Below, piece by piece: positions 14,798-15,451 of a stretch of DNA of 19,099 nucleotides. Below the pieces are notes generated by a model that did not search any database, was not told the DNA's origin, and worked only from the letters and a program-made list of their open reading frames with translations. Source of the stretch: a virus; the IMG/VR virus record IMGVR_UViG_3300031673_005827. One strand, written 5' to 3'. Position 1 is the first letter of the stretch; the number at the start of each line of letters is the position of its first letter. A program made the translations under genes and the position numbers.

Positions 14798-14812
14798 TCG
14801 TGGGGGGAACCA

Positions 14813-14838
14813 AGGGGGTGTCGGGAAACCGACACCCC
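14813..14838 (+). terminator. Perfect 11-bp stem-loop with a GNRA tetraloop, GGGGGTGTCGG-GAAA-CCGACACCCCC, between the MVP gene and the GroES-like gene. It may be an attenuator or RNA-stability element, since no U-tract follows.
   Basis: The inverted repeat is seen directly and is followed by tacttccAGGAGGAcacaATG. Confidence 0.5.
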
Positions 14839-14857
14839 CTACTTCCAGGAGGACACA

Positions 14858-15451
14858 ATGAACGAAGAAGCAGCTGATCTGAACACGGCGGAAGAACCAG
14901 TCGACGCAGAATGGGGCGAGGGCGACCCGCGCTGGTCACAGGACCCTGTGGCCCCCGATCCGGATGGCCCATGCGGCCCGCGACTCTTCGGCCGGGGCGA
15001 GTGCCCGTTCGTGCCCACGGGCAAGTACCTGATCCTCTGGGTGAAGCCGATCGAATTCTTCTCCAGGCAGGGTCTGATCGTGCCGACACAGACCGGAGGA
15101 CCTGGGGGCTATCAGTGCCCGATCCTCACTGTGATCGACGCCGGGCCGGAGGCCACGCGGTACCGTAGGGGTGACACGGTCGTGGCCAACCCCCGTAATG
15201 CTGAGGTGACCTACGAGTGGAGCGATCCCGAAGGACTCGGCACCGAGCACTTCCTGTTCGTCAACGAGGACAACATCCTCGGCCTCATTGACCAGGAGGT
15301 CGTCGGGCAGTTCTCGATCCGGGCGCAGCGCGTTCAGCGAGCGCAGACGCAACGGCTCATGGACCAGCAGCGTTCCGAAGATGTCGGGCTGTCTGTGCCC
15401 GACGAGAAGGTGATTCTCGGACCGAGTGGGGCACCGGCGAAGGACGACTGA
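14858..15451 (+). CDS. GroES/Hsp10-like co-chaperonin (phage gp31-type analogue) with an acidic N-terminal extension and a C-terminal extension.
   Basis: There is a strong AGGAGGA ribosome-binding site. The core resembles GroES at several points. KYLILWVKPIEFFSRQGLIVP matches RPLHDRVIVKR...AGGIVL. CPILTVIDAGPEA matches GEVLAVGNG. YRRGDTVVANPRNAEVTYEW matches VKVGDIVIFNDGYG. HFLFVNEDNILGLID matches EVLIMSESDILAIVE. Confidence 0.6.
   Translation: MNEEAADLNTAEEPVDAEWGEGDPRWSQDPVAPDPDGPCGPRLFGRGECPFVPTGKYLILWVKPIEFFSRQGLIVPTQTGGPGGYQCPILTVIDAGPEATRYRRGDTVVANPRNAEVTYEWSDPEGLGTEHFLFVNEDNILGLIDQEVVGQFSIRAQRVQRAQTQRLMDQQRSEDVGLSVPDEKVILGPSGAPAKDD

Follow-up and report, generated by a model that had tools for sequence, protein, structure and literature searches.

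A divergent GroES-like protein encoded directly downstream of an MVP gene in an uncultured T4-type phage

Genes and gene order at the locus

The DNA under study, referred to below as the window, is the whole 19,099-nt stretch of IMGVR_UViG_3300031673_005827 (~60% GC). Its source is an uncultured, distant T4-type phage; the portal gene is of the Portal_T4 type, with 22-25% identity to the portals of RM378, cyanophages and others, and genes further upstream encode a family A DNA polymerase, a RecA/UvsX-like protein and Mre11/SbcC (gp47/gp46)-like proteins. Neither a capsid gene nor a GroEL gene was seen within the accessible flanks. As a preliminary description of this DNA had stated, a gene for a GroES-like protein lies directly after a gene for an MVP homologue, and both ORFs are on the plus strand. 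Upstream of the MVP gene is a ribbon-helix-helix (RHH) gene, and two structured RNA elements flank the GroES-like gene (Table 1).

Table 1. Coordinates of the features at the RHH, MVP and GroES-like genes of the window
Feature	Coordinates	Strand	Description
Ribbon-helix-helix (RHH) gene	11836..12135	+	Alignment A5, with the genes that immediately precede the GroES-like gene in L004, L005 and L006
MVP homologue	12095..14797	+	900 aa (895 aa if start is 12110); PF11978 MVP_shoulder, E 1e-17; >5,500 homologues, mostly bacterial
Small 5-bp hairpin	14782..14795	+	ACUCC-GUAA-GGAGU; predicted fold; overlaps last codons and stop of MVP gene
Junction hairpin	14813..14840	+	12 perfect bp, GNRA (GAAA) loop; arms 14813-14824 and 14829-14840; no U-tract
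Shine-Dalgarno sequence AGGAGG	14847..14852	+	5 nt before ATG; duplex with anti-SD -10.3 kcal/mol
GroES/Cpn10-like gene	14858..15451	+	197 aa + stop; ORF, nine homologues, gene order kept in relatives
N-terminal extension, residues 1-47	14858..14998	+	Acidic; conserved EW-x-EGDPRW ... R-x-x-CP (alignment A2)
Cpn10 β-barrel core, residues 48-145	14999..15292	+	
Putative mobile loop, residues 65-88	15050..15121	+	G72-L-I-V on GroES G24-I-V-L (hhalign register)
C-terminal extension, residues 146-197	15293..15448	+	Basic helix 146-177, acidic tail with L-x-x-P..K..L..G-x-P (alignment A2)
Long conserved stem-loop and T-run	15575..15670	+	Fold z -5.2; also L004 ~6100-6195, L005 ~10650-10740

Nine homologues of the GroES-like protein were found, with 26-97% identity to the window protein and the same first residues, MNEEA. 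Four are close (59-97% identity) and came from a word-indexed search, and five are distant (26-34% identity, E 1e-18 to 1e-37) and came from a profile search of 1.84 billion representative proteins. Together with the window protein they make up the ten-member family alignment used below (A2), and the family is known from these ~10 metagenomic sequences only. The family profile also reached, at E 4e-4 in the same 1.84 billion proteins, a bridging sequence of 119 residues (P0013), for which a word-indexed search returned P0013 only. Three other candidates from the exhaustive search (P0010-P0012) were treated as spurious, since in these long repeat proteins the match is confined to a short 'TYxWSD'-like motif.

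Neither the region nor the GroES-like protein has a match in 50,697 phage genomes, which were searched at both the nucleotide and the protein level. Two scans of 185,579 species genomes found no relative and therefore no clue to a host or a prophage, and in PADLOC none of the GroES-like, MVP and RHH proteins matched a defence system. An antisense ORF of 252 aa (14936-15694) was dismissed, because it is the plus-strand ORF that is conserved as protein. Between the window and the copy in its relative L001, which encodes a 97%-identical protein, the GroES-like gene shows 6 synonymous and 6 non-synonymous codon differences. All 6 replacements fall at residue 141 or later, while core residues 48-140 carry three synonymous changes and zero replacements.

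The order RHH, MVP, hairpin and GroES-like gene is kept in the close relatives (L001-L004, L091 and L094-L097). Three distant relatives with usable flanks (L005, L006 and L102) are collinear with the window and have no MVP gene at the locus. In L005, the GroES-like start (9953) lies inside the RHH ORF (9708-9980); in L006, only 2 nt separate the end of the RHH gene (9609-9998) from the GroES-like start; and in L102 (RHH gene at 817-1077) and L103, a gene with a weak RHH_1 match overlaps the GroES-like start by 4 nt, and a PAPS-reductase gene comes next, as in the window. The RHH proteins of the window, L004, L005 and L006 align convincingly (alignment A5), and that of L006 passes Pfam RHH_1 (20.7 bits vs. 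a cut-off of 20.5). In L005, L006 and L102, the RHH gene is the conserved partner that precedes the GroES-like gene, to which it is translationally coupled. To our knowledge, an RHH regulator coupled to a co-chaperonin has not been described.

Because L005, L006 and L102 join the two genes directly, without MVP, the ancestral unit is RHH plus GroES-like gene, and in the window's clade the MVP gene and the hairpin were inserted exactly between them. In this clade the MVP start overlaps the RHH end, replacing the GroES-like coupling. The position coupled to RHH is now occupied by the MVP gene, and the GroES-like gene has a strong ribosome-binding site of its own. The locus offers a clean natural example of how a cargo gene, here one for a bacterial-type vault protein and accompanied by an RNA hairpin of its own, can enter a coupled gene pair.

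Two further genes of the window may be recorded here. The large terminase gene (3381-6398, plus strand, 1005 aa) contains an intein-like insert with a LAGLIDADG homing-endonuclease signature, which is kept in L001, L006 and L094. A small ORF (10430-10963, plus strand), conserved in all relatives, matches only the C-terminal glycyl-radical end of NrdD (PF13597 531-561, E 7e-6), and its product may be a 'spare part' protein for this anaerobic ribonucleotide reductase.

Cpn10 homology, predicted fold and function of the GroES-like protein

Direct searches did not place the window protein in a known family. It was unmatched by Pfam (PF00166, Cpn10) even at E<=1 and by the NCBIfam GroES models, and a search of PDB sequences gave no match with the protein itself or with a five-sequence profile. 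With the ten-sequence profile, the PDB search gave non-significant matches only, nearly all of them to Cpn10 or to the 'GroES-like' domains of ADH. Some relatives come closer to Cpn10. Two homologues score below the 21.1-bit Pfam Cpn10 cut-off (P0005, 16.4 bits, E 0.0095; P0004, 13.8 bits, E 0.063), and the bridging sequence exceeds it at 25.1 bits. Matches to phrog_3188, 'co-chaperonin GroES', were obtained with P0004 (E 4e-4), P0006 (0.024), P0007 (0.019) and P0013 (7.5e-10); phrog_931, the gp31-type 'head morphogenesis' family, was matched weakly and by relatives only (E 0.02-0.08).

Alignment A2 was compared, using hhalign, with an independent alignment of 80 Cpn10 sequences, made up of 77 Cpn10 genes from viral contigs, E. 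coli GroES and two other GroES sequences from the PDB. These 80 sequences had played no part in finding the GroES-like family, and P0013 was left out. The E. coli GroES sequence is identical to 1AON chain O. The two alignments matched with 96.8% probability (E 2.4e-10, score 64.8) over 85 columns, with query residues 50-147 lying against GroES residues 2-97, i.e. across the Cpn10 domain. In 31 control comparisons, in which the alignment was reversed or its columns shuffled (30 shuffles), no score exceeded 18.0. The identity of the window protein to any Cpn10 is below 20%. Six residues that are invariant in the family (P53, G72, G96, G105, D106 and V108) align to GroES P5, G24, G44, G62, D63 and V65, which are invariant among the reference Cpn10 sequences too.

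The predicted structure of the window protein likewise has the GroES β-barrel fold. An AlphaFold2 model built from the 10 sequences (mean pLDDT 74, pTM 0.62) is of moderate quality because the family has only ~10 members. Six β strands lie between residues 57 and 144 of the model; the stretch at ~65-88 is poorly defined, and residues 146-177 form a long helix. When the viral structure models were searched with Foldseek, 32 matches were found at E <= 0.001. All are from phages, including Campylobacter T4-like phages and a virioplankton set, and most are named co-chaperonin GroES or chaperonin. The structural match to T4 gp31 (1G31) was the best, yet not clearly better than that to GroES.

Taken together, these data leave little doubt that the 197-aa protein is a genuine, very divergent member of the Cpn10 family in homology and fold. 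The GroES-like core of the preliminary description was thus upheld, and the Cpn10 profile match that it anticipated was found between profiles, though not with plain Pfam PF00166. The family is so distant from GroES that standard annotation misses it, and it widens the range of the fold, its length being doubled by two conserved arms.

The part of the core that would contact GroEL is recognizable. In GroES, the tripeptide of G24-I-V-L inserts into the GroEL apical domain. G72 of the window protein occupies the position of G24, is invariant in the family and is followed in A2 by LIV, LVV, LAI, LAL or FII, with V-S-V in one member (P0009). The loop around it is the least confident stretch of the core in both structure models. 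A glycine followed by three hydrophobic residues is a GroEL-binding signature (PMC5649160).

The roof β-hairpin of GroES is absent from the window protein, in which a 9-column gap lies opposite GroES residues 49-57 (hhalign). T4 gp31 is likewise said, in the paper on its structure, to be without a roof hairpin, and this absence reportedly goes with a larger cage. Deletions of the roof hairpin have also been reported in some viral GroES clusters (PMC5649160). Because gp31 and some viral GroES proteins lack it too, a missing roof hairpin is no bar to co-chaperonin function. The length of the window protein is not exceptional either, as viral GroES proteins already include examples of 140-200 aa, several of the Foldseek matches among them. 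Compared with bacterial GroES (PF00166), with which it is homologous over the whole domain and shares the signature positions and the loop motif of a glycine and three hydrophobic residues, the window protein lies below the Pfam threshold, has nine roof residues fewer, five extra residues in the loop and two extensions, and is encoded without an adjoining groEL gene. T4 gp31 (PDB 1G31) has 111 residues and ~15% identity to the window protein, which is extended by an acidic arm at its N terminus and by a helix and tail at its C terminus.

The N-terminal extension has no GroES counterpart in hhalign. Its residues E18, W19, D23 and W26, along with R46, C49 and P50, are nearly invariant in A2, and pLDDT is 74-85 over residues 20-50. 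With 12 D/E against 3 K/R and a pI of 4.05 it is acidic, as are the last 20 residues of the protein; the helix at 146-177, in contrast, is basic (pI 9.4), so that the claim of acidic extensions at both ends applies to the C-terminal one in its tail only. The C-terminal extension is the most variable part of the protein between close strains. Arms of ~50 residues each, which double the size of the protein, could prevent heptamer formation or alter function.

The simplest model is that the GroES-like protein would form a heptameric lid that docks on host GroEL through the mobile loop G72-LIV, in the manner of T4 gp31 or RB49 CocO, and we consider it probable, by analogy with these proteins, that it acts with GroEL. 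Alternatively, a protein of GroES fold may no longer work with GroEL and may instead serve as a modulator or partner of the RHH regulator, or as an adaptor for another phage or host protein. Its conserved coupling to the RHH gene, the conserved family-specific motifs at both termini and the lack of a direct Cpn10 HMM match would all suit such a role. We regard this as unlikely, however, as the best structural and profile matches are to co-chaperonins and not to ADH-type domains, and as a glycine and hydrophobic tripeptide conserved in a flexible loop would be purposeless without GroEL binding.

In having a co-chaperonin gene and no GroEL gene in the accessible flanks, the window resembles known phage and virioplankton genomes of the GroES-only type (phrog_3188; RB49 CocO; PMC5649160); its family differs from these in having no detectable relative among the 50,697 deposited phage genomes. 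More broadly, phage co-chaperonins illustrate how a virus can adapt the folding machinery of its host to large proteins of its own.

Structured RNA elements on either side of the GroES-like gene

The MVP and GroES-like genes are separated by a 60-nt spacer containing a hairpin with 11 G/C-rich pairs and one A-U pair. The 96 nt around it fold with -42.6 kcal/mol (z -4.7 vs. shuffles). The preliminary description had noted a perfect GAAA-loop stem of 11 pairs without a U-tract; the stem in fact has 12 pairs, and the bases 3' of it are ACUUCC, hence no U-tract. The hairpin is single-copy, occurring at the MVP/GroES-like junction only, and is absent from relatives without an MVP gene. A metagenome scan for it returned one contig only, already known, and Rfam has no family for it.

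Selection on the junction hairpin is supported by its conservation in L001, L004 and L091, with only three distinct sequences to compare. The DNA running from the MVP stop codon through the stem is ~91% identical between the window and L004 or L091, against 64-69% in the flanking coding DNA, and the loop is GAAA or GAGA, always of the GNRA type. One change was seen in the stem, an A to G in the 3' arm, which gives a U.G pair in plus-strand RNA and a C-A mismatch on the other strand. As the changed stem pairs on plus-strand RNA only, a role at the RNA level on the sense transcript is favoured, and the lack of a U-tract likewise suggests that the hairpin acts at that level. Possible functions are protection against 3' exonucleases and weak attenuation, either of which would let the levels of MVP and co-chaperonin differ, and a part in setting their stoichiometry, as first suggested for it, is plausible. 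The hairpin presumably came with the MVP insertion or arose after it.

We do not think that the junction hairpin is the main terminator. A factor-independent terminator without a U-tract, from which the GroES-like gene would be expressed only by read-through, has points in its favour: the stem is very stable, conserved and placed just after the MVP stop codon, and terminators of this type have been proposed for high-GC bacteria, while the window is itself GC-rich. The other terminator-like hairpins of this phage group carry T-runs, however, and the transcription system therefore seems to use U-tracts. Furthermore, the DNA from the hairpin to the GroES-like start contains no promoter-like site, and the conservation extends beyond mere pairing to the primary sequence and the GNRA loop. 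True U-tract-less termination at this site thus seems to us quite improbable.

Two smaller elements adjoin the hairpin. The 5-bp hairpin at the end of the MVP gene, likewise with a GNRA loop, has GCAA as its loop in L004 and is not kept in L091. The Shine-Dalgarno sequence of the GroES-like gene is AGGAGG in L004 also and AGGAGA in L091. It was described initially as the strongest of the window, but ranks third, behind those of the portal gene (-10.9 kcal/mol) and the PAPS-reductase gene (-11.3 kcal/mol).

The 310-nt spacer that follows the GroES-like gene is also strongly structured (z -5.2). A long stem at 15575-15661, with a T-run after it, closes a C/U-rich loop of ~33 nt that hardly varies (CCATTCTCCGTTTCCCACCGCACCTGGGCCA). 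This stem-loop is conserved in L001, in L004 and in MVP-less L005, with compensatory changes on both sides in 7 of its 21 pairs, and it has no family in Rfam. It is likely to be the terminator of the RHH-(MVP)-GroES-like unit. The conserved loop suggests that it may do more, and it could double as a small RNA with an anti-SD-like loop.

Beyond the conserved spacer (15452-15764 in the window vs. 10595-10902 in L001), the set of genes varies between close strains. An 82-aa ORF and the PAPS-reductase gene are present in the window, ORFs of 249 and 208 aa in L001, and an extra gene of 455 aa in L095, so that the region looks like a hot spot of gene exchange. A promoter-like site (TTGACT, 16 nt, TATACT, with TG before the -10 element) occurs in nearly identical copies on the plus strand at 16043-16070, 17685-17712 and 18903-18930, and also at 15714-15741; in all, seven promoter-like sites were found vs. 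3.4 expected. Two of the copies are preceded by an inverted repeat, GAAAAACTT/AAGTTTTTC (17664-17684 and 18869-18895), a possible operator or terminator.

The MVP gene and the likely client of the GroES-like protein

Besides its MVP_shoulder domain, the MVP ORF carries a weak Vault_3 repeat. The protein shares 42-48% identity over 97-100% of its length with a large MVP family of >5,500 members, mostly bacterial (e.g. Nannocystis, Microscillaceae, Melainabacteria and Eremiobacterota); a scan of viral contigs for the protein found nothing. The loci of its nearest homologues outside the clade, L088 and L089, have no Cpn10-like ORF within 8 kb.

The preliminary description had proposed the GroES-like protein as a dedicated folding partner of the MVP or of the capsid protein. 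The MVP half of this proposal fares poorly. A vault protein and a co-chaperonin made from one transcript, with the arms of the latter helping to fold or assemble a vault-like shell and the GNRA hairpin setting their ratio, would be unprecedented both as vault assembly aided by a chaperonin and as a functional module around a viral MVP. The two genes are indeed neighbours in the same orientation, no promoter separates them in the window and its close relatives, and their junction element is strongly conserved; nevertheless, we consider such a partnership very unlikely, since the MVP gene and the hairpin were inserted later into an older RHH/GroES-like pair that L005, L006 and L102 retain with no MVP nearby, since L088 and L089 manage without a Cpn10-like ORF in a family that is mostly bacterial, and since MVP, at 99 kDa, far exceeds the ~60-kDa limit of the GroEL-GroES cage. 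Their adjacency, being recent, should not be taken as functional partnership.

The capsid half of the proposal fits better. The classic example of a co-chaperonin encoded by a phage comes from the T4-like phages, and the portal of the window is of T4 type, which makes the capsid protein a better client than MVP. Both T4 gp31 and RB49 CocO are needed for folding of the major capsid protein (PMC5649160). By the same analogy, the host chaperonin would be redirected to phage proteins, the T4-type major capsid protein being the likeliest client, and we put the chances that it is the client as about even. The combined explanation, comprising a GroEL lid, a capsid client, a later MVP insertion and an RNA-level role for the hairpin, is one towards which we lean.

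Phage homologues of MVP have already been reported from two human-gut phages, in a preprint that does not mention chaperonins (bioRxiv 10.1101/2023.11.10.566534), a silence that again does not favour a partnership of the two proteins. As in the window, those MVPs are of bacterial type and are encoded in tailed-phage genomes outside the structural cluster. The window differs from them in representing an environmental T4-like phage, with MVP placed between RHH and co-chaperonin genes.

A comparison of MVP genes between 98%-identical strains (window 12110-14797 vs. L001 7252-9939) gave one further observation. The two copies differ at 14 scattered nucleotides, and all 14 differences are non-synonymous. 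Purifying selection would not be expected to give such a complete lack of synonymous changes, which may hint that selection on the MVP gene is diversifying or relaxed.
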